Of a DNA stretch of 64,000 bases, positions 5,841 through 64,000 are shown one piece after another (position 1 is the stretch's first letter; every line of letters begins with the position of its first letter). Under the pieces are notes generated by a model. It did not search any database, was not told where the DNA came from, and saw only the letters and a list, made by a program, of their open reading frames with translations. Origin of the DNA: Raja brachyura (Eukaryota). Position numbers and translations under genes: made by a program. Location: NCBI GenBank assembly GCA_963514005.1, contig OY740783.1, positions 92,814,001 through 92,878,000 on the forward strand, read 5' to 3'.

Positions 5841-7166
5841 CAGCCATTCACAGGAATTAATGCTTTTACACATAATTTTTGAATTTAACAATATTATGGG
5901 AGCTCGTTCATAGTTCATAATCTGGGCATGCATAACCTGGGTTATGAATGTTATTTATACTTCATCTCCTGCTGACCTGATCCAGTGTCTTACAACATGG
6001 TGTTTCTTGGCAAGATGAGCATCAAACAATGAATTGATGACTTATACCAATTTCAAAACTAAACCAAATTCTCACACTGGGTGCTCAGCTTTGATACTAG
6101 CTTCTTCCTTTCGCAGTTGACAAGGGTGACTGTACAATACATCTTGATTAGTGAAATTCACTGTTAATAGAAACATGTTCCATCTGCAAAACATTTTGTC
6201 AGGAAAAATGAAACATATGCTTGCTCCATATATAATAGAAAGTGCACCAAAAATAAATTATTAGTGTCAGTGATTTGTAAAACCAGCTTTGAACCTTTCT
6301 ACTAAATTCCAATCACACCAACTTGTTATTAACAATTGAATTATTATATTTTTAAATGACTGAGTAGACATTATCCCCAGGAATATTAGTCTACCAAAAA
6401 TATGTTTTTTTAAATGGGACCTTGTGAATGCAAGGCATTAAAATGGAAGACATTCTCCCAAGGAATTAATGATCGACATACGTGTACAGGCTTCAACTCT
6501 AAAGGCCCTGTCTCACGGTGCGAGTTGACACACGAGTGACAGACTCGTGGTTGTGTACGATATTCCAAGTTGATGTGCAAGTGTTTGAGGCGAGTTCCCA
6601 CGTGTATGGTAATCTGCGATGTTCCGAGATCGTCTCCAGAGTTACCAAGTTCCCCTCCCGTTTGCTCTTGAGTTACCAAGTTCCTCTCCCGCTCAGGGCG
6701 TGTGTTGTTGCTGCAGTCCGGGATTCGCATTTAAAGCACTCGGTTATCTTCAGCAGTTCAGGCGAGGACAGGTTTTGGGGGGGGGGGGGGGGGCGAGGGA
6801 TGGTGGAATTGGGAGAAGGCAAAGACTATGGGTGGGGAGGAGTGAGAGGGGGGGCTAGGAACGGCATCTGCGAAACGGGTAGTCAACCTTTAGGGTCCCG
6901 GCCCGAAACATCCCTGTACATTTTATGATTTCCCTCCAAAGATGCAGTCTCCCGTGGTTTGTTTGCACAACTCTCTTCCCTCTCTCTCCCAACATTGGGG
7001 GGGGGGGGGGGAACGACGACAAGATAGTTTAAACGGACCTTACCCCCACTTCATGCTTCTGTTGCGCATAATTCAGCAGTAAAACCTCTCTTCCCCTTAC
7101 CCAGCTACGCCCGATTCCTCGCACCCCCACAAGTTCACATCGACGAGGGAAGAATGAGCGGGGAGT

Positions 7167-7406: not shown

Positions 7407-7568
7407 GATAGACACAAAATGCTTGCGTAACTCGGCGGGACAGGCCGCATATCTGGAGAGAAGGAATGGGTGGCGTTTTGGGTAAGTCTGAAGAAGGGTC
7501 TCGACTCCATTCCTTCTCTCCAGAGATGCTGCCTGGTCCGCTGAGTTACTCCAGCATTTTGTGTCTAT
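7407..7568. repeat. Fold-back Penelope terminal-repeat mini-element
   Basis: ATAGACACAAAATGCT...GAGAAGGAATGG is imperfectly inverted against CCATTCCTTCTC...AGCATTTTGTGTCTAT, around a truncated CTGAAGAAGGGTCTCGAC core. Confidence 0.7.
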
Positions 7569-8930: not shown

Positions 8931-9190
8931 ATCATCAAAATTAGATGAAGCACATGCTTCCCATTCACTCCCAGTATACAATATTTTCTCATTTAGTTAT
9001 TTTTTACTTAATTAATAATGCTCCTCATTTTTGTTTCCATTTTGGATTATTCCTTGAATGTTTAATGCTTCAATTTTTTAATTGCATTAATATGTTGGTT
9101 ATTGCATCACATACATTAAGTACACAATATGTATATATTCGCACAGATAATATATAAATATTGTGCTACTTCTGAGAAAAGGTTGAAAAC

Positions 9191-9810: not shown

Positions 9811-10353
9811 TGTTAAAGAAGGAACTGCAGATGCTGGAGAATCGAGGGTTACACAAAAACCTGGAGAAACTCAGCGGGTGCAGCAGCATCTAAGGAGCGA
9901 AGGAGATAGGCGACGTTTCGGGTCGAGATCCTTCTTCAGACTGGTCAGGGAAACGAGAGATATAAACAGTGATGTGGAGAGATAAAGAACAATGAATGAA
10001 AGATGCAAAAAAGTATTGATGATAAAAGAAACAGGCCATTGTAAGCGGTTTGTAGTGTGAAAATGAGAAGCTAGTGCGACTTGGGTGGGGGGGGGGGGGG
10101 GAGAGAGATGGAGAAGGAATGTCAGGGACCAAGGGCTGAGGGAGAGGTGGGGAGGGGGAGGGGGCAGTCTGGGTTAACAGAATTGAGAAAATTCAATGTT
10201 TAAGCCCAGAGGATGCAGACTCCCCAAGTGGAATATGAGGTGCTGTTCCTCCAACTTGCGGTGTTGCTCACTCTGGCCATGGAGGAGGCCCAGGACCGAG
10301 AGGTCGGATACGGAATGGGAAGGGGAGTTGAAGTGCTGAGCCACTGGGAGGTC
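9811..10353 (-). mobile_element. 5'-truncated Penelope-like element (GIY-YIG C-terminus plus terminal repeat)
   Basis: Reverse complement of the 3' end of 45857-47930, with a hammerhead-like core at 9912-9939. Confidence 0.9.
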
Positions 10354-10911: not shown

Positions 10912-11044
10912 GGAAATGAGTCTGAAGAAGGGTTTTGGCCCGAAACGTTGCCCATTTCCTTCGCTCCATAGATGCCGTCTCACCCGCTGAGTTTCTCCAG
11001 CACTTTTGTCTACCTTTGATTTTCCAGCATCTGCAGTTCCTTCT
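10912..11044 (+). mobile_element. 133-bp Penelope-derived mini-insertion with a hammerhead-like motif
   Basis: Flanked by the 19-bp direct repeat TCAACATCTATAAGAGCTA (10893-10911 and 11045-11063). Core CTGAAGAAGGGTTTTGGCCCGAAACGTT at 10922-10949. Confidence 0.85.
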
Positions 11045-11148
11045 TCAACATCTATAAGAGCTATACATGCGAGTGAGATATTCACTTGCCATTCAGTGAG
11101 AGATGGTCTGTGTGGGACTCAGTACCCAAGGGGAAAGATGATGCTTAC

Positions 11149-21856: not shown

Positions 21857-23488
21857 TGGCCCTGTCTCACGGTGCGAGTCCAGCCAAGAGCGACCCCAAG
21901 TGAAAGAAAAAAAACGGACTCGTGGTTATGCACGAGATTCAAAGTTTATGGTCAAGTGTTTAACCGAGTTCCCACGGGCATGTTCTTTATGCGATGTTCC
22001 AAGGTGCTCTCCCGAGTTACCAAGTTCCTCTCCCGTTACACTTGAGCCAACCGTGAATGAAGGTATGTTTTAATAAAGCAACAATGTTAAAGAAAACATC
22101 TCCATCCTGCGGCTTGGAGTTAAAGATAGAAATCAGCGCGGCTGCATCTATTAATATGACCTACAGAGGGAAAATGCGCATCAGATTGTTGGGAGACAGA
22201 GTTCAGGGTTCGCCTCCTGAGCTGCTTTGGTGCCCAGGCGTGAGGGAGGTTTGGGGGGGGGGGGGGGGGGCGCGGCGCGCGTCATTAATCTGTCTGGGGT
22301 GACAAGGCTCTTGGGTTAGGAGTGGTGTGCAAGGGAGTGGTGTGCAAGGGAGGCTTAATTCTCTCTGAAGCCCCGGACGAGAACAAATGAAACCTATCTT
22401 GCCAGCGCGTACAAGCCCTTGTATAAAAGGGTCTCGACCCGAAACTTCACCTATCTCCTTCACTCCTTCGATGCTGCTGCACCCGCTGAGTTTCTCTTAA
22501 GAAAGAAGGGTCTCGACCCGAAACGCCACCTATCTCCTTCACTCCTTAGATGCTGCTGCATCTCCCGCAAACCCACTGAGTTTCTCCAGCCTTTTGTCTA
22601 CCCCCGTTGTATATAACTTTGCTGCTGACACGCACACACGTGGGGTCCCCTCCACATCCACACCCCCTCTCTCCGACACACACCCAAGACAACGTGAGAG
22701 ACAGAGAGTTTGTAGGGTGTTGGTTTTGTATAAGGATTTATTTTTAAATTATTAGCCAACGTCGGATTTACTTATTTTAAACGAAGTTTGGAGCGCTTGA
22801 CAATACTTTTTTTTTCTCTTTGCGCTCGTTTTCAGAAAGGGTTCAGACCCCGCTTGGCTCGTTGCCCCCTTTGAACCAAGCCCTGCGGGAGGGAGGGAGG
22901 GTGGGAGGGTGGGAAGGTGTGAGTGAACAAGAGCGCCAAGGAGGAGAGGGAAATAGGGGGGGTGGGGGAGTGGGTGGAGGAGAAATAGGGAAGAAGTTAG
23001 TTGTTCAGATCAGAAACCGGTAGGCTGGGAGCCATAATGGTGAAGAGCACACCCAGTTCTTCTGAGGATTGCATAAGAGACTTAGATCGGAAGCAATGTT
23101 CCTCTAGAACTATAACTGAAACCGTGTCAACATCACCTCCTCTTGGCCGGACCGTAAAATCAAATCTACGCGTCAGGAAAATCCAATGTTCATTGATTCA
23201 TCTCCATGGTTTTTATAGCTAATTTTCCAATAAATAACTGCAGTAATCACCCCCCGATAGGGTAGGATAGGGCTCAAGCCCAGTGTTTAGACATTGGAAT
23301 GTTTTTTTTTAAAATCATTCTAATAGAATGATTTTCCACCTCCTTTGGTAATTAAACTTTTTTTTGTCCACGAGTGGACAAGTTGATCGCGCGAGGTCCG
23401 ACGTTCCCGCTACGTTGGCTGTACGTGATCACCACGAGTGAAAACTCAGGGTCACTCGTGGGCCAACTCGCACCGTGAGACAGGGGTT
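21857..23488. mobile_element. Non-autonomous PIF/Harbinger element with patchwork cargo, copy 2
   Basis: TIR TGGCCCTGTCTCACGGTGCGAGT / ACTCGCACCGTGAGACAGGGGTT with TAA TSD at 21854-21856 and 23489-23491. Confidence 0.9.
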
Positions 23489-23825: not shown

Positions 23826-24891
23826 TGTTAAAGAAGGAACTGCAGATGCTGGAGAATCGAGGGTTACACAAAAAGCTGGAGAACCTCAGCGGGTGCAGCA
23901 GCATCTAAGGAGCGAAGGAGATAGGCGACGTTTCGGGTCGAGACCCTTCTTCAGACTGGTCAGGGATCAGGGAAACGAGAGATATAAACAGTGATGTGGA
24001 GAGATAAGGACTCCATCCCCTATTCCCAATTCCTCCGTCTACGCCGCATCTGCTCCCAGGATGACGTGTTCCACACCAGGTAATCGCAAATGTCCTCGTT
24101 CTTCAGAGAACGGGGTTTCCCCTCCCCCACTATAGATGAGGCTCGCACCAGGGTCTCCTCCATACCCCGCAACACTGCCCTCTCTCCCCATTCCCCCACT
24201 CACAACAAGGGCCGAGTCCCCCTGGTCCTCACCTTTCACCCCACCAGCCAGCGCATACAACAGATAGTCCTCCGCCAGTTTCGTCACCTCCAACGTGACC
24301 CCTCCACTCGCCACATCTTCCCATCTCCCCCCGTCTGCCTTCCGCAAAGACCGCTCCCTCCGCAACTCCCTCGTCAATTCTTCCCTTCCCTCCCGCTCCA
24401 CTCTTTCCCCGGGCACTTTCCCTTGCAACCGCAAGAGATGCCACACTTGTCCCTTCACCTCCCCCATCCAATCCTTTCAGGGACCCAAGCAGTCATTCCA
24501 AGTCCGACAGAGGTTCACCTGCACCTCCTCCAACCTCATCTACTGCATCCGTTGCTCCAGATGCCAGCTGATCTACATCGGTGAGACCAAGCATAGGCTG
24601 GGCGATCGTTTCGCCGAACACCTCCGCTCGGTCCGCAATAACCAACCCGACCTCCCGGTGGCTCAGCACTTCAACTCCCCCTCCCACTCCGTATCCGACC
24701 TCTCGGTCCTGGGCCTCCTCCACGGCCAGAGTGATCAACACCGCAAGTTGGAGGAACAGCACCTCATATTCCGCTTGGGGAGTCTGCATCCTCTGGGCTT
24801 AAACATTGAATTTTCTCAATTCTGTTAACCCAGACTGCCTCCCCCCCACCTCTCCCTCAGCCCTCTGGCCCTGACATTCCTTCTCCATCTC
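23826..24891. mobile_element. Rearranged Penelope-like element (minus-strand 3' end plus an inverted RT-end/GIY-YIG segment)
   Basis: 23826-24010 is the terminal repeat on the minus strand, with a hammerhead-like core at 23927-23954. 24005-24891 is nearly identical to 46813-47669. ORF 24295-24828 has NLIYCIRC..IYIGET (GIY-YIG). Confidence 0.93.
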
Positions 24892-26429
24892 CGAAAAAAC
24901 AGGAAGCAGGGAGTAGATCTTTCTTCCATTCAGTACAATTGTGGCTGCTCATCTATTTCACTACCCCATTCCTACCATCTTACCATGTCCTTTAATGGCT
25001 CTGGCATTAAAAAACACACGTGCCAAAATACATCTGCCAATTATACACATATTTCAAATGACCTAGCCTCCGCTGCCGTCTATGGAAAGAATTTCACAGG
25101 TTCTGATTGAAGATTTGTTTTTCTTGATTGATGTTGAAAAAATGCATTCTGCATTTTCCGCACAGCTGGATTCTGGAGTGCAGTCATACGGAAATAAAAT
25201 GTCTGTCAGTTGAAAGTTTAGAGGTTTCACTGAGATTCCTTCTAGTGGGTAGGATAATCATGGTGACAAATTAATAGTAGGGGCTGACCAAAAAAATGAA
25301 GAGAAGAAATTTGTTTTATTATTGTCGAGTGTACTGTGGTACAGGTACATGGATAGGACAGGTTTGGAGGGATATGGATCAAGTGCAGGCAAGTGGGACT
25401 AGTGTAGCTGGGACATCGTTGGCAAGTTGGGTCGAAGAGCCTTTTCCCACACTATCAATCTATAACTGACTCTAAAAGCTTTTTTTTTAATTTTATACAA
25501 GAAACAAATAAATGTTTCTCGGATAAAAAATATAAAATGTTCGATAAACTCACCCTCAACAGCAACTGTGGAAAGGGAAACCAGATTTAATGTGTCAGGC
25601 ACTTGATGATTCACATTGACTTGGATAGGAAACAACCGTTGACCATAAACAATTCATTAACTGGATATTAGATTAACATTGCACGGTTGCCTTGATAGGC
25701 TTGATATGTACGAGGAGACTCGGGAGGGCTCTGATGAAAGGGCAGTGATCTGAAATGTTAGTTGTTATTCTGTCCATAAATAGTGCTCGACCTCCTGAGT
25801 ATTTCCAGCATTTTCCATTGTAATTTTAAGGTGGCCTTAGTGGGGGGGGGGGGGGGTTCTGTATATTTGGTGAATGTATATATTAAATTGGCAAAGAGAT
25901 GATTGGAACAATGTTGAAAGATCAGAACAAATAAGGGAAGAATTTTCTGAATTTAATTCAGGAGCATTTCAATGACGGGAATGTTTCACATCCAATGAAA
26001 AGATAGTGTTTGATCTATTTTTAGACACGAGTTGAACCAAATTGTCCATGTATCCTCCAAGATCAATAATCATTGAATGAGAAGCATTAAATTAATAATT
26101 GCAAGGAGCAAGAAAAAGTACAAAGTAAAGCAAAGTAAATTGAAAAATGGCCAACTTCAATGATGGAGACGGAACCTGGACATGTTGACAAATTTAGTTC
26201 ACCTAACTTGATCAAATTTTTCATGAGTAATATGGAGAGGAGATGAAAGGAATGCAGAAGATGCTCTTCGCATAAATTTTCCCTAAAGATGTTTGATAAA
26301 TCCTGTCCAAAAGGCTTGATCGCAAAACAGATCAATGGCAGCATAAATAAGAAATTATGTGAAAGGCAAATTACGGTAAATGGTTGGATTATTTGTCTTT
26401 AAATTGGAAGATAGTAGAGAATGATATCT

Positions 26430-34239: not shown

Positions 34240-37200
34240 TTTAAACAAAGTATCACTTGGTGAAGTGAAAATAAGATAAAAGCAGCCTGAAGCAAACAAA
34301 ATGGTGTTGGAGGTTGATGCAAAAATCACGTTGCTATAATGGTTAAATTGGATATTTCAATGATATAACAAGGTATTGCAATAGAGCAGGCTGGTAGGAT
34401 TGGTATAACTGCTTATTTGGTGGGGAAATTAAAGTATCAACTGATGGGACAAAAACGTTTCTATACCATACTATCCTTTTAGATCTATATGAAAATAGCT
34501 GTCCACAATTGAGTGTATTTTTGCAGGAATTTCTTTGAATGCAACCTATGAAATTCTGTATTGATCATCACTGTGTAGTTATGCTTATATATGCAAGTAC
34601 ATGAATTATTAAATCATTAACTTCAAAAGATTATACTTGACCTCACTATTCTCCAAACAGCATCTGTATAGTGATACTGAAACATAGCCATTCAGAATAA
34701 TTAATTACAATTCACACTGTTAACTAGAAAACTGCAAAATTAACGTTTTCAATATTGTAATAATTCCAGATGACAGCAGATTTTAGAATGGCAAGCGACA
34801 TTGGGATCATTTACTTCACACTGAATTATGTGCACACGGTTTTCCGTCCAAATGCAATACAGCATTTTGCCCACTGCAGTGACATAATTAAGGTTTTTTG
34901 AGACGCCACCTATATGCATTTGAGATAAGAAAATAATCAGCCTGGGAGGCATATCAATTAAACGTTTTCTCCAACATCCTATAGAACTTCCATCATTAAC
35001 CCTCCTGATTCATGCAACTTAGTTGCACCTCCCAGTTTAAAAATAGTGTCCATTTCAGGAGTCGATGACTATTATTGTTGGCACAGAAAAAAAATCAGGG
35101 CCAGCAACAAGACTGGAGAAAATCAATTACCTTCTCAGGTTGGTGACCTTCCAGCAGAAATAAAAGATCATTGACCTAAAGTGTTTTGCTGTGTGGAGTT
35201 GTTACGTTTAGGATTAAGTATAATCAATGTGGACCGACTTTAACTTAGATATCCAGAATTGACATTTTTTTTTGCGTTAGCATTTATATGGTACTTTACA
35301 ATAAGATATACGAGGGGAAATAACACCTAACGGAGGGTCCCGGCCATCCTCTTGTCTTCACAGATGCTGCCTGACCTGCAGAATTTCTCCAGAGTTTTTG
35401 TTTTGCTATCTAAAATGCTGTTTCAATAACTGATTTTGCACAAACTGCATCGCTCAAATTCTAAAAACCATAAGGGTAACTGCAAAAGAACATTCAGGGT
35501 ACATTCCAGTGATTTGGGTTTCGTATAGTCTCAGCTGAACCAATCAGAAATAAAAGTACTGAAGCATGTGTTATACATATCACATTAGCAAACTTTTCCA
35601 GGATTTCAGTTTGTAAGCTGTGCCCTTCGGAGCTTAGTAAGTGGCTTAGTGGTAGAACTGAATGGATAAAATGATTGACTACTTAGTTCATTAAAAGAAC
35701 ATTCAAGCTCTTGTGAATGCTAAAGAGTCAGCTTGAGTGCTGCGCTATGAAGCAATAACTCAAACTAACCAATATCCTTAATTTAATTACAGATAGGCAA
35801 TGACTTGTTCCAGTTTACACACTTTACAATAATTCTCTTTTATATTATTGACCTTAAAATAAAATCATATTTTACCACTGTACTGCATACAGCTCAACTG
35901 CTGCAGTTAATTAGTTAGAATGATAAATATATTGTCACACTGATTCAACCAATACAACTTGCTTAACACCAAATGCACAGATGGCAATTCACCAGTAGCT
36001 ATTCTCAGTAGAGCAATCTTGCTATTCTAGTAAACGTGCTATAAACAAAACAACATCCCAGAACACTTCAGTTGATCCATGCAGCCAGGCTTTATTGCTG
36101 TATAACTTGAAAATAGATGTTTTGGGCTGTACAGCCATAAAGTCTCAATAGTTTACTGCTGTGGCATATGCCAATATCAGCCCAGAAGCTCAGATGTGAA
36201 AAATGACCTTAAAATCAAAGCAGTCCTAATGGAAGGAAAACACACCAACTCTCCACATTATTAAACCTTGCAGGATTTTTTACCACAGTGTAAAACATAT
36301 CTTTAAGTCCCCTGGAGGGCAGCTTTTGTGCAGTTATTGAATATACCAGAGACAGATATTTTTAATGCGACTTCATTCAGTTCAGTCAGTTATCATCTCT
36401 TTACTGGGTGCAATGAATAAAACAAGTTGCTTTTTTTTCTGAGAGAAAACTATAAAGTGAAGCACATCCAAATATAGTTTTATCAGTCCTTTTTTTGTGT
36501 AATGCTCTCTATCACATGAAAAGCAAGGGCAGAATACACTGTGCAAGTCATAAGGAAGAATTAAAATATAGAGGGATTAGGAAAGTGACCCACTTCTATT
36601 TTTGGGTGGTATAATGTCTCTTTTTCCCTACCTACCACAAAACCAGAATACTCACCAACACTCAAAAGTGTTTGTATTAGTCTATTCCAAAAAAAAAGTA
36701 TTTCCTAATTAAAATACTTCATTTTACATGGGGATATTGAGGCATCAATTCAATTGACACACAAGTATTTTACTATTTATTGTTTCCTGAAGCCTTTCCA
36801 GGACAGCAAAATGACACATAAATTATAGGTGGACATTATCCTATATGCTCCTTATAGCAAAGGAAACCTACACGCAATTAATCTTCACAAGAATTATTAC
36901 ATCCTTAAAACTTGCTTTTGTCCCCGAGACACCACATAAAATAAAGGAAACTTGAAAATTACCTTCTTCCAAAATAAGTTTTAACTGAATATTAACAATG
37001 AAGAGCTTTGTTTTAGCTTTCAGCTGTCATAAATCGTGACACATTTGGTAATCCAATGATTTGTTCAATTGCAATCCTTTGAAAATGAAGAAGCTAAAAT
37101 TCATTTTTCCATGCGAGTGAAAGGAGCAATTTGCTTAAAATCAGCAGAGAAACATATTCCTAACTGCTCTGAAGTCCCATCTTTCATTGTAATTATAATC

Positions 37201-40845: not shown

Positions 40846-40960
40846 TGTTTAAGAAGGAACTGCAAATGCTGGAAAATCGAAGGTATACAAAGATACACAA
40901 CATATATGGTGCGAAGGAAATAGGCAACGTTTCGGGCCGAAACCCTTCTCCAGACCCATA
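40846..40960 (-). repeat. Penelope terminal-repeat fragment with a hammerhead-like motif
   Basis: Minus strand reads ATGGGT-CTGGAGA-A-GGGTTTCGGCCC-GAAACGTT-GCCTAT. Confidence 0.75.
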
Positions 40961-41147: not shown

Positions 41148-41328
41148 TACATGAAATGCTGGAGTAACTCAACGGGTCAGGCAGCATCCCTGGTGGACAT
41201 GGATAGGCAATGTTTCGGTTTGGGGCCATTCTTCAGGCCTATCCACGTCCTCCAGATATGCTGTCTGACTTTCCCCAGCACTTTTTGTTTTACTCAAGAT
41301 TCCAGCACCTGCAGTTCCCTTTGTCTCC
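41148..41328. repeat. Older fold-back Penelope terminal-repeat mini-element
   Basis: A minus-strand terminal repeat is joined to a plus-strand copy (GGATAGGC / GCCTATCC). Confidence 0.65.
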
Positions 41329-42269
41329 TGAATACAATTATTGCCTCCTTGCTGATATTGGCCCACTGTTGAATGGAGCAGGATAGAAACATAGGATATC
41401 ATAACATGCTCTATTAGTAAGACTGGTTATGTTTTAATATTTAAAAAAAACATTGGCCTTCAAGTTGCTGGATGTGTGAGCTGATAAGAGTAAAGTAAGG
41501 GCATCAAGGCTTTGCACTATTTTTCTTGCCACTTGTTGGGTTCTCCTCAACTATGTGAAAATGAATGAGGCATGGTCCATTCACACCATCATTAATGATG
41601 GAAATGAACACTTCATCCAATCAAACCAAATGATCTTCATATATAACACAATTGCCACCGAAAAGTAAAATATATTCCTTCCCAAGCAAACGATAACATA
41701 CCCAAGTTACCACATAGCCCACTATTCTTTGATTGGACTTTACTGGTTTTATCTTATTCATGTTATTCCCTTCACCATGTATCTGTACACTGAATGGCTG
41801 AATTGTAATTATGTATTGTCTTTCCACTGACTGGTTAGCACACAACTAAAGCTTTTTGCTGTACAGGTAACAATAAACTGAACTAAACTAAACAGTGATC
41901 ACCAAACATATAAACTATTTGGTGCAGACACCACATAGTCCATCTTAGGAACACAGAAGCAATGCATGTAAACAGAACTAACTGTTTTCCACTGTAAGTT
42001 GCTTGATAATTCTACATTATAATGCATAATAATTTTTTGCATTCAGAAGCCATTATATTTTTCTTTGTAACAATCTGGTTCCCTTTAGTGGGATTGCACC
42101 AAAGATGCTTGGTGGTTATGACCGACCATTGTTAGAAACTTTTCCAGCAGACTGATTTTTCTGACAAAAGCAAAATCAAATAGTAAAAGAGCAACAAAAC
42201 CATTAGTCATTTCTTACAATCTTAGTCTTTTTTACAAAGCTATCTTGAATATCGATTGACATCAATTCA

Positions 42270-43390
42270 AAACCTACTGACTCCCACAGCTAACTAGACG
42301 ACACTTCTTCCCACCCTGCTTCCTGTTAAGGCTCTATCTCATACACCCAATTCTTCTGTCTATGCATCTGCTCCACACCAGGACATCTGAGGTCCTCATT
42401 CTTTAGGGAATGAGGGTTCCCCTCTTCCATCATAGATGAGGCCCTCACAAGGGTTTCCTCAATATCTTGCAGCTCCACTCTTGATCCCTCTCCCCCTAGT
42501 CGCAACAGGGACAGAGTCTCCATAGTCCTCACCTTTCACCCCATCAGCTGTTGCATACGGCACATAATCCTCCAACATTTTTGCCACCTCCAACAGGATC
42601 CCATCACTCGCCACATCTTCCCATCTCCATCCTTTCCACTTTCTGCGGAGACTGTTCCCTCTGCAATTCCTTGGCAACTTGTCCCTTCCCACCCAAACCA
42701 CCCCCTCCTACGGTACTTCCCCTGCAACCGCAGGAGATGCAACACCTGTCCCTATACCTCTCATCTCAGCTCCGTCCAAGGACCCCGACAGTTTTTTCAG
42801 GTGAGACAGAGGTTCACTTACACCTCCTCCAACCTCATCTACTGTTTGTACTGTTCCATGTGTGGACTCCTATATATCAGCAAGACCAAGTGCAGGCTCG
42901 GCGATCATTTCATGGAAACCACCTGATCTCCCGGTTGCTAAACACGTTAACTCCCCCTCCCTATCCCACAATGACCTTTCTGTCCTGGGCCTCCTCCATT
43001 GTCAGAGTGAGGCCCAGCGCAAATTGAAGGAACAACACCTCATATTTTGCTTTGGCAGCTAACACCCCAGCGGTATGAATATTGACTTCTCTCACTAAGT
43101 AACCCTTGCTTTCCCTCTCTTTCCATCCCTCCCCCTTTTCCTGTTCTCCGACCAGTCTGACTGACCTTGATTACATTTTATCTGTTTGCATTGTTGTTAC
43201 CTTCTCCTAGCTAACAATGATCTATTCGACATTTCCCTTGATTTCCACCCCCTTTTTAATCATCATCAGACCTTACACTTCTTTATCTCTGTATCCCCTG
43301 ACAAACTGCAGAAGGATCTCAACCCGAAACATCACCCATTCTTTCTATCCACAGATGCTGCCTGTTACTCCAGCATTTTGTGTCTATCTT
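42270..43390 (+). mobile_element. Decayed Penelope-like element, older subfamily
   Basis: Colinear with 46755-47930 (KPTDSHS.., GIY-YIG remnants) with many indels. Degenerate core at 43306-43333. Confidence 0.9.
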
Positions 43391-45504: not shown

Positions 45505-45865
45505 AATGCTTGAAGGTGGGAAGTGCTTGAAATACTCAGCAGGTCGGGTAAAGAGAAAAAATGAGAAACTGAGAGTGTGGTAAGATGAAATGAGAGAATG
45601 GAAGAGGGCTGGAGAGAGTACAGGAATGTATGAGTGGAAATGAGAGTTGTTCAGATGACACAATGCTTTCAGGGCCTTCTACTTAATAGATGAGAGAGAG
45701 AGGTAACTTGCGAGTTGGAAGGAGGAAATGTTTGAACTGTCAACTGCATAATGTTATAGTTGCTGGAATTCTGAAACAAATTACCTAGCAACTCAGACAA
45801 CAGCTGTAAAGGGGGAGATGTTGAACTAATGTCACAGATGGATGACCTTATAACAGGGAGGTGCT

Positions 45866-47606
45866 GTGGTAGTCTGGTGCGCCGATCTCTACAAAGCAGA
45901 GGCCACGCGCCAACTCTCGGACACCTCCTCCTACTTACCCCTGGACCATGACCCCACTGACGAGCACCAGGCCACCATCTCGAGCACCATAACCGGCTTC
46001 ATCAACTCCGGCTCCCTACCCCCCCGAGCCTCCAACCTCATCGTTCCCCAGCCCCGCACAGCCCGATTTTACCTTCTCCCCAAAATCCACAAACCCGACT
46101 GCCCCGGCAGACCCATTGTCTCTGCCTGTTCATGCCCCACCGAACACATTTCCACATACCTTGACTCCATCCTATCCCCCTTTGTTAAATCCCTCCCCAC
46201 CTATGTTCAAGACACCTCAGATACTCTCCGTCGGCTCCGCACATTCCGTTGTCCAGGCCCCCATTCTCTCATCTTCACCATGGACGTCCAGTCACTATAC
46301 ACCTGCATCCCCCACCAGGATGGTCTCAAAGCCCTCCGGTACTTCCTCGACCAGAGGAGCAACCCATACTCATCCACTGACACCCTCCTCCGCCTAGCGG
46401 AGTTGGTCCTTACCCTCAACAACTTCTCTTTTGACTCCTCCCATTTCCTCCAAACACAAGGCGTAGCTATGGGCACACGCATGGGCCCTAGCTACGCCTG
46501 CCTCTTTGTCGGGCACGTCGAACAATCTTTGTTCTCGGCGTACCAGGGCCCCACCCCCGCCCTTTACCTCCGTTACATTGACGACTGCTTTGGTGTCACC
46601 TCCTGCACCCACGCAGAACTGACTGACTTCATCCATTTCACAACCAACTTCCATCCGGCACTCAAATATACTTGGACCATTTCCGACATTTCCCTACCAT
46701 TCCTTGACCTCACCATCTCTATTGCAGGTGATACACTCCTGACTGACATCCACTACAAACCAACTGACTCCCACAGCTACCTGGACTACTCTTCCTCCCA
46801 CCCTGCTTCCTGTAAGGACTCCATCCCCTATTCCCAATTCCTCCGTCTACGCCGCATCTGCTCCCAGGATGACGTGTTCCACACCCGGTCATCGCAAATG
46901 TCCTCATTCTTCAGAGAACGGGGTTTCCCCTCCCCCACTATAGATGAGGCTCGCACCAGGGTCTCCTCCATACCCCGCAACACTGCCCTCTCTCCCCATT
47001 CCCCCACTCACAACAAGGGCCGAGTCCCCCTGGTCCTCACCTTTCACCCCACCAGCCAGCGCATACAACAGATAGTCCTCCGCCAGTTTCGTCACCTCCA
47101 ACGTGACCCCTCCACTCGCCACATCTTCCCATCTCCCCCCCTGTCTGCCTTCCGCAAAGACCGCTCCCTCCGCAACTCCCTTGTCAATTCTTCCCTTTCC
47201 TCCCGCTCCACTCCTTCCCCGGGCACTTTCCCTTGCAACCGCAAGAGATGCCACACTTGTCCCTTCACCTCCCCCATCCAATCCTTTCAGGGACCCAAGC
47301 AGTCATTCCAAGTCCGACAGAGGTTCACCTCCTCCAACCTCATCTACTGCATCCGTTGCTCCAGATGCCAGCTGATCTACATCGGTGAGACCAAGCGTAG
47401 GCTGGGCGATCGTTTTGCCGAACACCTCCGCTCGGTCCGCTCAGCACTTCAACTCCCCCTCCCACTCCGTATCCGACCTCTCGGTCCTGGGCCTCCTCCA
47501 CGGCCAGAGTGATCAACACCGCAAGTTGGAGGAACAGCACCTCATATTCCGCTTGGGGAGTCTGCATCCTCTGGGCTTAAACATTGAATTTTCTCAATTC
47601 TGTTAA
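45866..47606 (+). pseudogene. Penelope-like RT / GIY-YIG endonuclease ORF, 5'-truncated, frameshift near 47440
   Basis: Motifs (DK)GGAVVVW, LPKIHK, GRPIVS, MDVQSLYT, GVAMG, YIDD and NLIY..IYIGET. A short deletion relative to the 24637 copy shifts the C-terminus into ORF 47385-47606. Confidence 0.93.
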
Positions 47607-47837
47607 CCCAGACTGCCTCCCCCCCACCTCTCCCTCAGCCCTCTGGCCCTGACATTCCTTCTCCATCTCTCCCCCCCCCCCCCCCCAGTCGCACTAGCTT
47701 CTCATTTTCACACCACAAACAGCTTACAATGGCCTGCTTCCTTTATCACCAATACTTTTTTGCATATCTTTCACTCATTGTTCCTTATCTCTCCACATCA
47801 CTGTTTATATCTCTTGTTTCCCTGATCCCTGACCAGT

Positions 47838-47865
47838 CTGAAGAAGGGTCTCGACCCGAAACGTC
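47838..47865 (+). ncRNA. Minimal type I hammerhead ribozyme-like core
   Basis: CTGAAGA-A-GGGT(CTCG)ACCC-GAAA-CGTC, with palindromic loopless helix III (ACGT) and a GUC triplet. Helix I is weak in this copy. Confidence 0.65.
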
Positions 47866-48271
47866 GCCTATCTCCTTCGCTCCTTAGATGCTGCTGCACC
47901 CGCTGAGTTTCTCCAGCTTTTTGTGTAACCGACCTTATAACAGAGTTGGCCTGTGCTGTTACTAACTGGATAATTTATTTCTATTAAATTGTTGAAATTG
48001 ACATCTCTGTCCTGGTTCCTGCTTTTATGATCATATTTCTGTCACATCTTGGGAAATCCTCGATGACCCTGATCTAACATTGCACATATTCAATTCACCT
48101 GCGCCTTCTCGCCATTTTGATGCTGTTCTTTCAACATCCAGGATATGTCTCCAATTATTCTTTGGAACAAGACTTGAAAAATATATTGGAAGTAAAAAAG
48201 AAGTTCCCAAGACAAATTCCTTGTGACATTCTTTGAGTCGCCAAGCTGAGAGAGATCATGTGAACTCTGGA

Positions 48272-49510
48272 CTCTCCACTCTGGACCACTTGGACAACAA
48301 AAACTCATATGTCAGGTTGTTATTCATTGATTATAGCTCGGCATTTAATACTATCATCCCCTCCAAGCTGGGTACAAAACTCGCAGAATTTTGAATTGAA
48401 TTGAATTACCTTTTTTGTCAACTGGGTCTCTGCGCATCCCTCTGCAATTGGATCCTCGGCTTCCTCATTCACAGACCACAGTCTGTTCGTATTGGTGGAA
48501 ATGTGTCAGACTCGATAACAATCAGCACGGGAGCACCTCGAGGCTGCGTGCTCAGCCCCCTGCTGTACTCTTTCTATAGTCATGACTGCGTAGCTGGTCA
48601 CAGTGCAAATTCCATCATCAAGTTCGCTGCTGACACCACTGTTGTGGGACATATCACTGATGGGGATGTCGGAGTACAGAAGAGAGATTGAGCAACTGTC
48701 CATATGGTGCCAGCACAATAACCTGGCCTTCAACACCAGCAAAACCAAGGAACTGATTGTGTTTGGAAGGAGTAGGATGGGGACCCATAGTCCCGTTTAT
48801 ATAAACGGGTCGATGGTTGAAAGGGTCAAGAGCTTCAAATTCCTGGGTGTGCACATCTCCGAAGATCTCTCCTGGTCCGAGAACACTGATGCGATTATCA
48901 AGAAAGTTCACCAGCGTCTCTACTTCCTGAGAAGGTTACAGAGAGTCGGTTTGTCAAGGAGGTCTCTCTCCAACTTCTACAGGTGCACAATGCAGAGCTT
49001 GCTGACCGGTTTCATCGTAGCTTGGTTCGGCAACTTGAACGCCCTAGAGAGGCAAAGACTACAAAAAGTAGGAAGCACTGCCCAGTCCATCATCGGCTCT
49101 GACCTTCCTTCCATCAAAGAGATTTACCGCAGTCGCTGCCTCAAAAAAGCTGGCAGTATCATCAAAGACCTACACCATCCTGGCCACACACTCATCTCCC
49201 TGCTACCTTCAGGTAGAAGGTACAGGGACCTGAAGACTGCAATGACCAGGTTCAGGAATAGCTACTTCCCCACAGCCATCAGGCTATTAAACCTGGCTCG
49301 GACAAAACTCTGATAACTAATTACCCATTATCTGTTATTTGCACTTTATTAGTTTATTTATTCATGTGTGGATATATTTATATATAGTATATGGACACAC
49401 TGATCTGATTTGTAGTAAATGCCTTCTATGTTCTGTGTGCTGATGCAAAGCAAGAATGTAATTGTCCTATCAGGGACACATGACAATAAACTCGCTTGAA
49501 CTTGAACTTA
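48272..49510 (+). mobile_element. 5'-truncated Rex1/Babar-clade LINE
   Basis: ORFs 48401 and 48603 ([27 protein letters not shown]) and a (CTTGAA)n tail. Same family as 28306-29960. Confidence 0.93.
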
Positions 49511-51639: not shown

Positions 51640-52025
51640 CACCAGGAGGTTCTGAAGAACAGCATGTTATATTTTGATGGGCAGCTTACAGCCCAGTGAT
51701 ATGAATATTGAATTCTCGAACTTCAAGTAATCCTTGCTTTCATTCTCGCTCCGTCCCTCCCTCACCCCAGTTCTCCGCCTGATTAATTTTGCTGATTGTA
51801 TGCCTCATTGTCACCTTTCCCTCAGCCAACAACGAACCATTCTATATTTCCTTGAGCATTATCTGCTTTGATTAGTCATTTTCACACATTACCCTTCCAT
51901 ATCTCCAGTCGCCCTCTCCCCTGACTCTCAGTCTGAAGAAGGGTCTCGACCCAAATCGCCACCGATTCCTTCTCTCCGGAGATGCTGCCTGTGATGCTGA
52001 GTTGATCCAACATTTTGTGTCTAAT
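51640..52025 (+). mobile_element. Penelope-like 3' fragment, older subfamily
   Basis: GAAGAACAGC..ATATT..TGAATATTGAATTCTC coding end, plus a terminal repeat with a degenerate core at 51933. Confidence 0.8.
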
Positions 52026-52237: not shown

Positions 52238-53315
52238 GTCAAGAGTCGAGTCATGTGTTTAGTTGTAATATGTAACAAAATGGAACAATTAAATTCTTAC
52301 TTGCAGCAGCAGAACAGGATTTTAAACACCTTACTCAATAAATACATAATAGTGAAACAAAAAAGTAGTTCAATAAATAAAACAACGTAGTCCAAAACAA
52401 AAAAAATACTGGAATTCCGAGTGCAAACAAGACAGTTTGTAGTTTGGATTTTAGTGGGAGTTTGTAGTGTTCAATAACCTGATAGTTGTTGGGAAGAAGC
52501 TGCCCTGAACCTTGACGTCACAGATTTAAAGTCTGATGCTTTTTTCACAATGGCTTTTTCTTCTTATTGAGTCCACACACAAGATTAGAAGTTGCTCAGC
52601 CTGAGCTGAACACACTTCTCGGTATCTGCACACAATGGTGTCTGTCTTGCACTTCTTGTGCTTCTTGTGTGTGACGGTGGAAAGATTGGTGAAAACAGGG
52701 CCGCGACGTGAACGCTTCTTCCTTGACCCCTTCACAATGGCTGGAATGAAATGAGAGCATGGCCAGTCCTTGATGATGTTGGGTTCCTTTTTGAGGCAAT
52801 AGGTTCCTTCGATGGTTGGGAAATCAGTACCTGGTCATTGCACAACCAGTCGATATGCTGTCCACTGTACACATGCCAAAGTTCTGGAGTATTTGTCGAA
52901 ATACCAAATCTCCTCAAATGTCTGCGAAAGTAGTGGCATTGATGGGTTTTTTTTTATGATTGCAACAATGTGCGTGGTCCAGGGCAGATCTTCAGAGATA
53001 TGCATGCCTAGGAATTTGAAATTTGTTGACTTTGTCAACCTGACCCATTGTTGAAGACAGGCTGGTGGATCTTCAACCTTCCTTTTCTAAAGTCAACAGT
53101 CAGCTCCTCGCTTTTACTGACATTGAGAGCAAGGTTGTTGTTCGGGTACATTCAGTCAGATGATGGGTCTCCTTCCTGTGCTCTGAATCATCATTTCCCA
53201 TAATTCGTCCAACAACGGTGGTGCAATGGGCAAATTAATAAATGGAAATTGTCTGGCTCCATGGTCATGAATATTGAGTGAATTGAGCAGGGGACTGAGC
53301 ACATATTCTTGAGGC
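52238..53315 (-). mobile_element. Decayed Rex1/Babar LINE
   Basis: ORF 52835-53038 has NFKFLGMHISEDL. Interrupted by a 175-bp insert at 52556-52730. Confidence 0.8.
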
Positions 53316-55903: not shown

Positions 55904-58900
55904 CATAGAAACATAGAAACATAGAAAAATAGGTGCAGGAGTACGCCAATCGGCCCTTCGAGCCTGCACCGCCATTCAATGTGATCATGGCTGATCATCC
56001 AACTCAGTATCCCGTACCTGCCTTTTCTCCATACCCCCTGATCCCTTTAGCCACAAGTGCCACATTTAACGCCCTCTTAAATATAGCCAATGAACTGGCC
56101 TCAACTACCTTGTGTGGCAGAGAATTCCAGAGACTCACCACTCTCTGTGTAAAGAATGTTTTCCTCATCTCGGTCCTAAAGAAATTCTCCCTTATCCTTA
56201 GACTGTGACCCCTTGTTCTGGACTCCCACAACATCGAGAACAATCTTCGAGCATCTAGCTTGTCCAACCCCTTAAGAATTTTGTAAGTTTCTATAAGATC
56301 CCCCTCAACCTTCTAAATTCCAGCGAGTACAAGCCGAGTCTATCCAATCTTTCCTCATATGAAAGTCCTGACATCCCAGGAATCAGTCTGGTGAATCTTC
56401 TCTGTACCCCCTCTATGGCAAGGATGTCTTTCCTCAGATTTGGAGACCAAAACTGTACGCAATACTCCAGGTGTGGCCTCACCAAAACCCTGTACAACTG
56501 CAGTAGAACCTCCCTGCTCCTATACTCAAATCCTTTCGCTAAGAATGCTAACATACCATTTGCTTGTTTCACTGCCTGCTGCACCTGCATGCCTACTAAA
56601 ATGACTGGTGTACCATGACACCCAGGTCTCGTTGCATCTCCCCTTTTCCTAATTTGCCGCCATTCAGATAATAGTCTACCCTCATGTTTTTGCCACCAAA
56701 GTGGATAACCTCACATTTATCCACATTATACTGCATCTGCCATGCATCTGCCCATTCACTCAGCCTATCCAAATCACCCTGCAGCCTCCAAGCATCCTCC
56801 TCACACCTAACTATACCCCCCAACTTGGTGTCATCTGCAAATTTGGAGATGTTGCATTGAATTCCCTCGTCCAAATCATTAATATATATTGTAAATAGCT
56901 GGGGTCCCAGCATTGAGCCTTGCGGTACCCCACTAGTCACTGCCTGCCATTCTGAAAAGGACTTGTTTTCTCCTACCCTTTGCCTCCTGTCTGCTAGCCA
57001 GTTCTCTATCCACATCAATACTGAACCCCCAATACCGTGTGCTTTAAGTTTGTATGCTAATCTCTTATGCGGGACCTTGTCGAAAGCCTTCTGAAAGTCT
57101 AGATATAACACATCCTCTGGTTCTCCCTTATCCACTCTACTAGTTACATCCTCGAAAAATTCTATCAGATTTGTCAGACATGATTTACCTTTCATAAATC
57201 CATGCTGACTTTGCCGATGATTTTACCACTTTCCAAATGCGCTGCTATCCCATCTTTAATAACTGACTCTAGCAGTTTCCCCACTACCGATGTTAGACTA
57301 ACTGGTCTGTAATTCCCCGCTTTCTCTCTCCCTCCTTTTTAAAAAAGTGGAATTACATTAGCTACCCTCCAATCCTCAGGAACTACTCCAGAATCTAAGG
57401 AATTTTGAAAAATCACTAATGCATCCACTATTTTTGTGGCTACCTCCTTGAGTACTCTGGGATGCAGACTATCTGGCCCTGGGGATTTATCGGCCTTCAA
57501 TCCGTTCAATTTACCCAACACCACCTCCCGGCTAACCTGGATTTCACTCAGTTCCTCCATCTTATTTGACCCCCGTTCCACTGCTATTTCCGGCAGATTA
57601 TTTATGTCCTCCTTAGTGAAGACAGACCCAAAGTAGTTATTCAATTGGTCTGCCATGTCCTTGTTCCCCATGATCAATTCACCTGTTTCTGACTGCAAGG
57701 GACCAACATTTGTTTTAACTAGTCTCTTTCTCTTCACATATCTATAAAAACTTTTGCAGTCAGTTTTTATGTTCCCTGCCAGTTTCCTTTCATAATCTAT
57801 TTTCCCTTTCCTAATTAAGCCCTTTGTCCTCCTCTGCTGGATTCTGAATTTCTCCCAGTCCTCCGGTAGGCTGCTTTTTCTGGCAAATTTGTATGCCTCA
57901 TCTTTTCTTTTTATACTATCCCTGATTTCCCTTGTTATCCATGGATGCACCACCTTCCCCGATTTATTCTTTTGCCAAACTGGTATGAACAATTTTTGTA
58001 CTTCACACATGCAGTCTTTAAATACCTTCCATTGCACATCCACTGTCAACCCTTTAAGAATCACCTGCCAGTCTATCTTGGCCAATTCACATCTCATACC
58101 TTCAAAGTTACCTTTGTTCAAGTTCAGAACCCTTGTTTCTGACTTAATTTTGTCACTCTCCATCCTAATGAAGAACTCAACCATATTATGGCCACTCTTG
58201 CCCAAGGGGCCACGCACAACAAGACTGCTAACTAACCCTTCCTCATTACTCAATACCCAGTCTAGAATAGCCTGCTCTCTCATTGGTTCCTCCACATGTT
58301 GGTTGAGAAAACTATCCCGCATACATTCCAAGAAATTCTCTTCCTCAGCACCCCTGCCAATTTGATTCACCCAATCTACATGCAGATTGAAGTCACCCAT
58401 TACAATCGTGTTACCCTTGTTGCACGCATTTTTAATTTCCTGTTTGATGCCATCCCCAACTCCAATACTACTGTTAGGTGGCCTGTACACAGCTCCCACT
58501 AGCGTTTTCTGCCCCTTAGAGTTTCGCAGCTCTACACATATCGATTCCACATCCTCCACGCTAATGTCCTTCCTTTCTATTGCATTAATCTCCTCTCTCA
58601 CCAGCAACGCTACCCCACCTCCTTTTCCTTTTCGTCTATCCCTCCTGAATATTGAATATCCCTGGATGTTCAGCTCCCAGCCTTGGTCCTCCTGGAGCCA
58701 CGTCTCGGTGATCCCAACTATAGCATAGTCATTAATCGCTATCTGCACCTTCAACTCATCCACCTTATTACGAATGCTCCTCGCATTGAGACACAAAGCC
58801 TTCAGGCTTGTTTTTACAACACTCTTACTCCTTATACAATTATGTTGACAAGTGGCCCCTTTCACATCGATCCCTATTACACTTGGCCATACTCTCCTAT

Positions 58901-59087
58901 CCCTTTGTGAGCTTTCTTTCCCATTAATTCTGGGGTCATTAACCATCCCTTTACTCTCTTTCCCTTTAACTCCATCCTCGACTATCCCATTTGACACCCC
59001 ACCCCCCTTATTCAGTTTAAAACCATCCGTGTAGCAGTGGCAAACCTGCCAGCCAGAATGCTGGTCCCCCACCTGTTAAGATGCAAT
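55904..59087 (-). mobile_element. CR1 (HER1-like) LINE with near-complete frameshifted ORF2, nested in an older plus-strand CR1 fragment
   Basis: ORF 57339-59072 has APE motifs (NARS, GITETW, YRPP, MGDFN, LDWV). RT motifs include YLDFQKAFD, GVPQGS and KFADD. (TTTCTATG)n tail at 55904-55926. The host fragment resumes near 59112. Confidence 0.96.
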
Positions 59088-62094: not shown

Positions 62095-64000
62095 ATTGGA
62101 AAGCACAGATACAAACCTTTAGTCCACCACAACTGTCCAATTTACCATAATTTCATTCACCCACATTAGCCCTATATCCTCCTATACTTTGCCTATTTCA
62201 ATGCCTACCTTAATATTTCTTAACTGTAAAGATCGTATCTGACTTCACCACTTCTTCTGGCAGCAAGTTCCAAAGGTTACACAAAAAGCTGGAGAAACTC
62301 AGCGGGTGCAGCAGCATCTAAGGAGCGAAGGAGATAGGCGACGTTTCGGGTCGAGACCCTTCTTCAGACCCTTCTTAGATGCTGCTGCACCCGCTGAGTT
62401 TCTCCAGCTTTTTGTGTAACCCTCGATTCTCCAGCATCTGCAGTTCCTTCTTTAACAAGTTCCAAAGGTTGATTGCTCTAAGTGTTAAAATTCCTTCCTC
62501 TAACCTTGAATCAATGGTCTTTTATTTTTGACACTCTGAACATGGGCAAAGGATTCTGACTATTTACCCAATTCTTAGAATTCTTAGCATTTTAAAGACC
62601 TCTATCAGGTCAGCCCCAGTATCTTTCTCACCAGGGAAAATAAGTCAAACCTATTTGATGTTTCATATCTAATGCCTTCAATTCAATTCAATTCAATTCA
62701 ATCTTTAATTGTCATTGTGCAGTGTACAATACAGAGACAATGAAATGCAGTTGGTATCTCCGATTCCAGGAACATCTCGGCATACCTCCCCTGCACTCTT
62801 TTCAACATGGTGACCAGAACTGCTCAATCAGTACTCTAAGTGTGCTCTGACATGTTTTATAAAGTTACATCTTAATATCCCAGCATTATATCCCATATTT
62901 CAACCAATGAAAGCAGACTTGCCTTATGCCTTTTTCACTGCTGCCACTATCAGGGAACTATGGACTTGAACCATGTTTCCATTATTCATTGGCATTCCTT
63001 AGCACCTTACTATTCACACTATATGCCCTAGCTCTATTTGACTTACAAACATGCGTCACCTCACATTTGTCAGGGAATAATTCCATCTGCTAATACTCAC
63101 TCATCTTTCCACCTGATCCATATCCTGCTGTAGCAACAACCTGGCTAATGTACTACCACATCACCAATTTTTATGTATTCCGCAAACATACTAATCATAT
63201 TTCCTATATTCATGTACAAGTTGTTAATATTAGGACAAACATTGTGGGTCCCAGCACCCGTCTCTACAGTACAACAGGTGTTAATCAGAAAAAAGTCCTT
63301 GCACCACCATCCTCTACTATCACCAAACCAATTTTGAAACTAATTAACTAGCTCATCTTGGATCCCATGTGCCTTAATCATCTGGACCAGCCTACAATGC
63401 ATGACATTGTCAACTATCAGTAACGTCCATACACGCTAAGTCTACCATCCTTCCTTCATCAATTTTCTTAATTACTTTTTCAAAAAAATTGAATATGAGA
63501 CACAATTTCCCCATTCAAAACATGCTAACAGCCCCTGCTTTTCCAAATGCAAATAAAGCCTATTCCTCATGATTAACTCCGGCATTTTCTCTCTCACTAA
63601 TATAACGTTCACAAGCCTGTAAATACCTGGCTTTACCCTGTTGCCTCATTTAAATAAAGGAACAACATTAGCTACCTTCCAGACTTTGGTCACCTCATCT
63701 GTGGCTAATGAAATGCAATGACTCTTCTGAGGGCCCAGCTATCTCCTTCCTTGCTTCTCATAGCAATCTAGGATGTTTGAAGAAGGGTCTCCACCTGAAA
63801 CGTTATCCATTCCTTCTATCCAGAGTCTGCCTGTCACGCCGAGTTACTCTGTCATTTTGCGTCTATCTTTAGGATAGATCTCAAGTGGGCTTGGTGATTT
63901 GGTAACCCTTATGTGTTCTATGACATCTAACACCTCTCACTTTTACTAAGGACATGCTCCAGATTATCAATAAACCCTATCTGAACTCATTGTCATCCAT
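62095..64000 (-). mobile_element. Old decayed CR1 LINE hosting several small insertions
   Basis: Degenerate reverse-complement CR1 RT and 3' UTR. Interrupted by the 62279 element, a (TTCAA)n Rex1-type tail near 62677 and a Penelope terminal repeat at about 63775-63870. Confidence 0.7.
62279..62455. mobile_element. Young fold-back Penelope mini-element with a hammerhead-like core in the loop
   Basis: 15-bp TSD CAAGTTCCAAAGGTT (62264-62278 and 62456-62470). Perfect 48-bp inverted arms at 62275-62322 and 62374-62421. Minus-strand core at 62340-62367. Confidence 0.9.

Follow-up and report, generated by a model that had tools for sequence, protein, structure and literature searches.

The 64,000-nucleotide stretch of Raja brachyura DNA analysed here (the window) carries a known minimal type I hammerhead motif in the pseudo-LTR (pLTR) of a very abundant Neptune-type Penelope-like element (PLE). 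We think it probable that this motif makes up the first 33 bases of the element's RNA, and that its million or so genomic copies are mostly short run-offs from uncut RNA and not working ribozymes. The motif class has been published and its presence in this genome is ordinary; what is found is a very high-copy member of the class. The interest lies in the position of the motif at the apparent RNA start, in the proposed run-off origin of the short copies, and in the occurrence of long and short forms of helix I in two families.

The hammerhead motif and its carrier element

The motif, at 47838-47865(+), lies 3′ of a frame encoding reverse transcriptase (RT) and a GIY-YIG endonuclease (EN). The features of this locus are as follows.

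45844..45856 (+), target-site duplication, left copy, 13 bp, identical to 47931-47943
45854..47512 (+), open frame of 552 aa with RVT_1, CX4CxxC linker and GIY-YIG
45857..47930 (+), 5′-truncated Neptune-type PLE beginning at the DKG motif: RT, Cys linker, GIY-YIG, 3′ UTR, pLTR
47834..47837 (+), initiator-like CAGT, where copy 5′ ends accumulate; A47835 is the inferred RNA +1, and the GU is the 5′ arm of a 2-bp helix I
47838..47845 (+), core C3-A9 (CUGAAGA) plus an extra A
47846..47857 (+), helix II, 4 bp with a 4-nt loop, closing pair G10.1-C11.1
47858..47867 (+), GAAA, palindromic ACGU (helix III arm, in a dimer only), C17 at 47865 and the 2-nt 3′ arm of helix I
47865/47866 (+), predicted cut, after C17
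47868..47930 (+), remaining pLTR: a pyrimidine tract with predicted pairing to the core, then a hairpin region that stops at the first 3′-end cluster (+93 to +98), the inferred RT start 1
47931..47943 (+), target-site duplication, right copy, 13 bp

Pfam matches to RVT_1 (aa 78-246, E 1.3e-5) and GIY-YIG (aa 496-529, E 6e-4) in the 552-aa frame both fall just under the cut-offs, and comparison with other copies shows its endonuclease end to be out of frame. A DKG-motif RT and, at the C terminus, a GIY-YIG share one ORF, and the CX4CxxC linker fits the CX2-5CxxC pattern that marks Neptune and Nematis elements (PMC8557442). The carrier appears to be of Neptune type, a choice over Nematis that draws on the linker motif and the host group. 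Among 14 long relatives compared, three (L167, L168 and L170) measure about 3.96 kb from hammerhead to hammerhead, with the long ORF beginning about 165 nt past the upstream motif; the sense-strand motif sits between the 3′ UTR of one ORF and the start of the next.

Several further features of these elements were seen. In two relatives (L135 and L164) the full ORF carries, ahead of the RT, a short N-terminal domain followed by about 300 aa rich in Pro and Ser. At positions 3578-3700 of L168, an ATG at +54 starts a short upstream frame before the main ATG near +167; the +54 ATG is kept across subfamilies, which may merely reflect a conserved stem. A pLTR stem of 9-10 bp, pairing +51-59 with +108-118, is present in all subfamilies and in an older family described below. 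The first 3′-end cluster falls inside this stem, which is a candidate RT-binding site.

We compared the motif with several pattern controls. A 28-letter pattern matched the window ten times at up to three mismatches and never in 100 shuffles, and a loose core pattern matched it 14 times against a mean of 4.35. Six sites in the window pass a structure descriptor, as do 68 sites in a 1.0-Mb genomic sample and none in the reversed sequence. The extra nucleotide between 9 and 10.1, A47845, represents the commonest descriptor class (48 of the 68 matches). The minimal core, CUGANGA ... GAAA ... UH, is present at 47838-47865 and unchanged in seven subfamily majorities. Six matches at E ≤ 1 were returned by an Rfam scan of the window, none of them to a hammerhead model, which is no evidence either way because the motif is too minimal. 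The preliminary description of the sequence, which had placed at the 3′ end of an RT/GIY-YIG element a minimal PLE hammerhead that has one additional nucleotide following A9 and whose helix III arm is palindromic, was therefore borne out, and the motif matches the class described in PMC4209133.

Homologous copies in the window

All 17 sites that had been listed as copies in the window (47838 and 16 others) proved by BLAST and direct reading to be homologues of the repeat, but only four of them (47838, 10922, 23927(-) and 62340(-)) are intact in the sense of retaining the core, the 4-bp helix II and ACGU. Elsewhere the core is changed (A6>G at 40926(-)), helix II contains an A.C mismatch (9912(-)), the palindrome has gone through CpG decay (7167), CUGA is absent (6890, 22428 and 22503) or GAAA is absent (7488). 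Among the helix II variants previously reported, GGGT-TTTG-GCCC is the product of CpG decay of the TTCG loop in one copy and not a subfamily form. The CTGATGA site at 25731 is indeed a homologue but belongs to a separate, older family. The copies are as follows.

6892..6915 (+), fragment consisting of just helix II and GAAA
7164..7255 (+), tailed short copy starting at +1; CpG decay has removed the palindrome
7412..7564, two copies head to head: 7412-7483(-), inverted, and 7485-7564(+), which is without GAAA
8765..8850 (+), decayed short copy
9847..10341 (-), young 3′ fragment that includes the pLTR and has a mismatch in helix II
10919..11056 (+), tailed short copy starting at +1, of the U17 subfamily, intact core
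22427..22603 (+), two tandem copies, CUGA missing in both
23862..24891, pLTR in inverted orientation, 23862-24010(-), core intact, connected to an RT/EN fragment on the plus strand, 24005-24891
25727..25830 (+), older CUGAUGA-family copy (family majority helix I 4-5 bp)
40898..40955 (-), short copy, broken core (A6>G)
41148..41236 (-), decayed copy
42254..43383 (+), older PLE 3′ fragment (RT end and EN, 72% identity), decayed hammerhead at 43306
51899..52020 (+), decayed copy without G12
62275..62421, two young copies head to head: 62275-62369(-), core intact, and 62371-62421(+)
63775..63862 (+), decayed copy (C3>U)

More decayed pLTR pieces lie near 2215 (+), at 35362-35401 (+) and near 45521-45549 (-). 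The window contains no tandem arrays of hammerhead units: its copies are solo or head-to-head, and the sole tandem pair (22427-22603) is without CUGA. No host exon was recognized, in that none of the 135 non-repeat open frames of the window reaches a Pfam family cut-off in a scan that, with 10 further frames, covered the 145 largest of 347 candidates.

Other repeats were also observed. Ordinary LINE fragments with APE endonuclease and RT lie at 56599-59075 (-), 28139-29404 (+), 9187-9813 (+) and 48594-49310 (+). A retroposon of about 170 bp at 52560-52730 (-), placed between 12-13-bp duplications and carrying an A-rich tail at its end, opens with a ribozyme fold resembling HDV/CPEB3 (Rfam RF00622, 32.6 bits, E 8e-5, short of the gathering score of 35) in which P4 is apparently minimal. 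Its family is dispersed, with identity of at least 91% in all 40 matches scored, and 3002 candidates.

Genome-wide copy number and decay

We extended the analysis to the whole 2.70-Gb genome, in which there are 77,243 exact matches to a tight version of the motif and none to its reversed control. A profile search of 100 evenly spaced 10-kb stretches (1.0 Mb, contigs C1-C19) returned 398 copies, again with none in the reversed sequence. If this sample is typical, the genome contains about 1.07 million homologues. Set against 398 copies per sampled Mb, an earlier estimate from the window of about one copy per 4 kb is if anything too low.

Most of these copies are decayed. The 11 core bases and H17 are retained in 87 of the 398 sampled copies, and 51 of the 398 also keep ACGU, which corresponds to about 140,000 copies genome-wide. 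G12 is missing in 85 of 239 near-full copies; this base lies in a CpG, and is changed in 72/222 copies compared with 104/441 for downstream CpG bases. Changes are rarer at A in the core than at A downstream of it (36/890 versus 82/1097, p=0.002), whereas core G, T and CpG positions show no such difference. The better-kept core A may be an effect of context or alignment; it speaks slightly against pure neutrality and is not fully explained. We do not claim selection on the copies after insertion, the signal being mixed by base class.

Conservation of the core in subfamilies and in an older family

Subfamilies were defined by clustering the 239 near-full copies, with divergences of 2-19%. Across seven clusters, none of the 11 core positions varies compared with 18 of 61 downstream positions (one-sided Fisher p=0.03); addition of a noisy, most decayed cluster of 13 copies changes this to 1/11 versus 20/61 (p=0.10). 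Greater conservation of the core than of its flanks across subfamilies, one of the tests that the preliminary description had set for its reading, is thus seen, if weakly. Five subfamily changes fall in +1 to +33: two loop bases, a U-A to U.G change in helix II, C17 to U17, and a U-A to U.G change in helix I. All five are in the loop, at H17 or pair-keeping, which together with the invariance of the core supports a ribozyme origin. Covariation adds little: a hand-picked alignment of 18 rows has a single pair altered on both sides, but 28 of 500 shuffles reach the same result, and helix II covariation was rejected as not above shuffles.

Helix I consists of U.G or U-A plus G-C followed by a mismatch. 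It had been described as about 2 bp in the youngest subfamily, but in fact has this length in each of the eight clusters of the main family. The older family's majority arms, (C)AGUU and AACU(G), make helix I 4-5 bp long there, in support of a genuine ribozyme origin. This family has U at N7 and a 5-bp helix II whose closing pair is G.U (27/54) or A-U (22/54) compared with G-C in the main families; its palindrome is the same as the main-family ACGU, with a CpG-type mix of C/T and G/A at the same columns. These counts come from 57 aligned rows, less three that were mis-anchored, gathered by searches seeded with two copies, and are therefore not a random sample. Near-identical older-family copies recur every ~45 kb at 21.6-21.9 Mb of contig C29 of the same genome, G000 (L344-L348, L352 and L353), and on C940, marking a large tandem segmental duplication.

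In summary, the source elements conserved the hammerhead and the inserted copies mostly do not.

Many copies begin at an initiator-like sequence

We used the ends of the copies to ask which RNAs had served as templates. Alignments start at model positions 1-6 in 250 of the 398 sampled copies (including 47 long copies that run on upstream), and near the cut site in few: 13/398 from positions 28-36 and 4/398 from 30-34. The 283 copies that reach the start of the core comprise 47 that continue into the element 3′ UTR, 86 that are head-to-head and 150 that are solo. Information upstream of 102 solo copies is down to background by about −10, and the older family shows the same fading upstream of its AGTT. 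The piling up of copy 5′ ends at an initiator-like CAGT indicates that the motif likely opens the transcript and that most copies are likely run-offs of uncut RNA. The RNA would then likely begin at the A of CAGT, with the motif as its first 33 bases, a start site read from sequence.

CAGT fits the initiator consensus BBCA+1BW, which in Drosophila is TCA+1GTY (PMC5580651), and is conserved in initiator-like form in both families. Where a base other than C precedes +1, this base is G in 48, A in 38 and T in 14 of 100 rows listed and scored by eye (G expected 27%, p=8e-6); for non-inverted +1 copies at the loci examined the counts are G 18, A 15 and T 3. This modest G excess, with A nearly as common, fits a reverse-transcribed cap in part of the events, although a target preference or untemplated purines could give the same excess. 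Mapping of a cap G through target duplications was abandoned for want of clean cases: a duplication of at least 9 bp is found in only 31 of 167 non-inverted copies, and G is the last base in 7 of 12 filler stretches at +1/+2.

The 3′ ends of 166 young copies fall largely into two groups, with 91 at +93-98 and 44 at +129-136. Head-to-head pairs account for 148 of the 398 copies. These pairs often join at a CAG-T-CTG micro-palindrome at +1 (L005/L006, L015/L016, L020 and L070), which is what fold-back second-strand priming would give. At some junctions (L255 (-) near 1201, and 5-6 of 100 rows) the inverted piece ends at +34; such a piece could provide a long helix I 5′ arm with one bulge, making these junctions possibly the best candidates for cutting.

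We also looked for copies starting at the cut site. Among 52,066 young copies recognized by an anchor at +36-59, 743 lack the AAA of GAAA. In 100 listed rows of these, read by eye, about 11 start at +32 (the cut site) and 4 more are ambiguous through CpG decay; other starts are at +28 (6-7), +29 (2), +30 (8), +31 (4), +33 (5), +34 (14), +35 (9) and +36 (about 10), the remaining rows being internal deletions. Copy starts form no sharp peak at C17, and with the filter allowed for, cut-site starts amount to at most about 0.5% of young copies. The scarcity of C17 ends does not imply that there is little cutting, because cut, uncapped RNA may be degraded or integrate poorly.

Folding and the capacity to cut

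Equilibrium folding, computed without protein or Mg2+, predicts that the probability of the 10.1-11.1 pair falls from 0.95 in a 31-nt RNA to 0.02 in one of 41 nt, as the core becomes paired with the tract at +36-44. In 135-nt folds the end of the tail is predicted to pair with the core instead. The ACGU duplex has a predicted worth of −1.7 kcal/mol. Tail-core pairing as a conserved 'off switch' is not claimed: it is predicted for the youngest subfamilies only, is variable at 4-9 bp and does not covary. On these models, unaided cutting of the dispersed copies is unlikely. It is plausible that the transcripts of the element are cut with the help of protein: the hammerhead of PAc, a Poseidon element from Anolis carolinensis, was cleaved only with protein, and ribozyme mutants inserted normally (PMC11167929). 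In that system no RNA-seq ends were reported at the cut site, and RT starts at two internal positions (PMC11167929).

The foremost alternative to the run-off explanation is that the ribozyme is active in vivo, with the two motifs of a pLTR-ORF-pLTR RNA dimerizing in cis to release a 3.96-kb unit that is circularized or degraded, so that uncut copy ends reflect merely the RNAs that survive. The core is invariant across subfamilies and the older family, as this account would have it, and full units in partial tandem exist. Cutting by related motifs also lends it some support: other PLE hammerhead dimers cut weakly in vitro (in Schistosoma the monomer was uncut and dimers cut poorly; PMC4209133), and the PAc motif does cut once protein is present (PMC11167929). 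However, copy starts show no sharp excess at C17, helix I is 2 bp and the ACGU duplex has a predicted −1.7 kcal/mol, and cutting of PAc was dispensable for insertion in vitro (PMC11167929). We regard in vivo activity of this kind as unlikely.

Promoter, splice-site and host-cleavage explanations

A position at +1 to +33 is also where downstream core-promoter elements lie, and the younger families may have kept the motif mainly as a signal in DNA or RNA (an initiator with a downstream promoter, or a site where the element's protein binds the 5′ end) and no longer as a ribozyme. Penelope of Drosophila virilis has an internal, TATA-less promoter in its pLTR that includes a DPE (PMC2377424), the most amplified families here are those with a 2-bp helix I, and in the main family alone 8 of the 10 MTE consensus positions are matched by +18 to +27 (PMC5580651). 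Yet the DPE consensus RGWYV is missed at +28, and the older family, which is without the MTE-like word, shifts the spacing by 1-2 nt while keeping the hammerhead, although Inr-DPE spacing is strict (PMC5580651). The MTE/DPE reading was set aside on this spacing. Subfamily changes that preserve pairs (U-A to U.G twice) are a further point against a signal alone, which we consider improbable.

CAG/T might instead be a 3′ splice site, such that a short first exon lengthens helix I and splicing switches the ribozyme on. The long copies (n=46) do share a pyrimidine tract and CAG (A 96%, G 98%), and D. virilis provides a precedent in which an intron end abuts helix I (PMC4209133). However, the branch-like CTGAC comes after the tract, a few bases from the AG, and the solo copies mostly keep the AG and have no common upstream exon. 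A GT..AG joint was absent from the best 15 of 48 joints in four sets of assembled contigs (two of them probably DNA), drawn from 24 sequence runs represented by assembled contigs only, with the RNA origin of the best ones a guess. The splice-acceptor explanation was rejected on these grounds and is very improbable.

Finally, we give hardly any credence to the proposal that dispersed copies are very many working self-cleavage sites that cut host pre-mRNAs at scale. It goes back to the preliminary description, which had inferred that the genome may hold a great many potential sites, some of them in host introns. Of the 398 sampled copies, 51 do keep the core, H17 and ACGU, and long introns would often contain two same-strand copies. 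Against the proposal stand the 2-bp helix I, the predicted loss of the hammerhead to competing folds, decay of G12 at or above the downstream CpG rate, and the 148 copies in head-to-head pairs, which would fold as long hairpins; no host gene was identified in the window, where a location within introns was not confirmed. The prevalence of single motifs without a partner in the same unit, and copy ends that point to template RNA almost never having been cut, also speak against a large working self-cleaving set.

A model for the origin of the copies

The run-off explanation that we favour can be set out as follows. Pol II would start at the A of CAGT. By analogy with PAc, the element protein would nick DNA and begin cDNA synthesis at one or other of two internal sites of the RNA; cDNA begun on the 5′ pLTR would run off the capped end after 95-135 nt, giving the short copies, and fold-back of the run-off cDNA would give the head-to-head pairs. 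Cutting at C17 is predicted to be rare and confined to element transcripts, and to need two motifs paired through ACGU together with protein help, because helix I is only 2 bp and the core is taken up in pairing with either +36-44 or the tail. Once inserted, the copies decay, also at G12.

A more far-reaching interpretation, possible but short of probable, is that the Penelope hammerhead is here the capped 5′ end of the RNA, with helix I built from +1. With no change in the core, helix I would have shrunk from 4-5 bp in the old family to 2 bp in the families that went on to produce around a million copies. The ribozyme would act as a switch at the transcript start, either silenced or gated by protein, and the genome would hold a million-entry, 'strong-stop'-like cDNA record of how Penelope elements build tandem and inverted insertions.

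If the start-site reading is true, the ribozyme is tied to the promoter and the ~100-bp size of most copies is explained. The ends of around a million copies report which RNAs served as templates, an unusually large natural data set, and the families with long and short helix I form a matched pair for cleavage assays.

Comparison with known hammerheads and Penelope-like elements

The role of PLE hammerheads has been called unclear (PMC8557442). The minimal class, with its extra nucleotide, palindrome and genome-wide dispersal, was described in 2014 (Cervera and De la Peña, PMC4209133), including examples from fish Xena, Poseidon and Neptune elements, and large copy numbers were anticipated there for other vertebrates. 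No shark or skate term occurs in two of the three supplementary files of that study. In literature judged mostly by description, we found no shark or skate PLE hammerhead beyond a preprint on retrozymes, and no placement of a PLE hammerhead at a transcript start.

As in the metazoan PLE motifs of PMC4209133, the type I core lies in the pLTR with an extra nucleotide at 9/10.1 and a G10.1-C11.1 pair, 15.2-16.2 is palindromic with no helix III stem, and thousands of solo copies derive from truncated elements. The dimensions differ. Helix II has 4 bp here compared with 7-8 bp in Schistosoma and 6 bp in D. virilis, and helix I has 2 bp compared with 4-5 bp in Schistosoma. A 2-bp helix I like that at 47838 is given in that study only for an atypical D. 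virilis variant; the older family here has 4-5 bp. The 77,243 exact copies exceed the highest counts given there, about 4,000 in coelacanth and about 9,000 in Xenopus, and the apparent placement of the motif at the RNA start distinguishes it from the hammerheads described there.

Poseidon PAc (Frangieh et al. 2024, PMC11167929) resembles the present element in having two 3′-end clusters 35-40 nt apart, corresponding to the tail, a hammerhead at the pLTR-ORF junction and no sign of RNA ends at the cut site, which here is judged from copy sequences. Unlike PAc, the present element has a Cys linker of Neptune/Nematis type and a long Pro-rich N-terminal region, and the first ATG of its long frame lies about 165 nt downstream of the hammerhead, whereas the PAc ORF starts inside it. 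The C-terminal GIY-YIG, CX2-5CxxC linker, 5′ truncation, partial tandems, inverted 5′ copies and 30-40-bp tail are all present here, as in Neptune-clade EN+ PLEs (Craig et al. 2021, PMC8557442). Non-LTR retrozymes also carry PLE-derived type I hammerheads, and one chondrichthyan genome was positive for them (bioRxiv 10.64898/2026.07.22.740005); those, however, are tandem arrays, whereas the copies described here are solo or head-to-head pieces of a pLTR.
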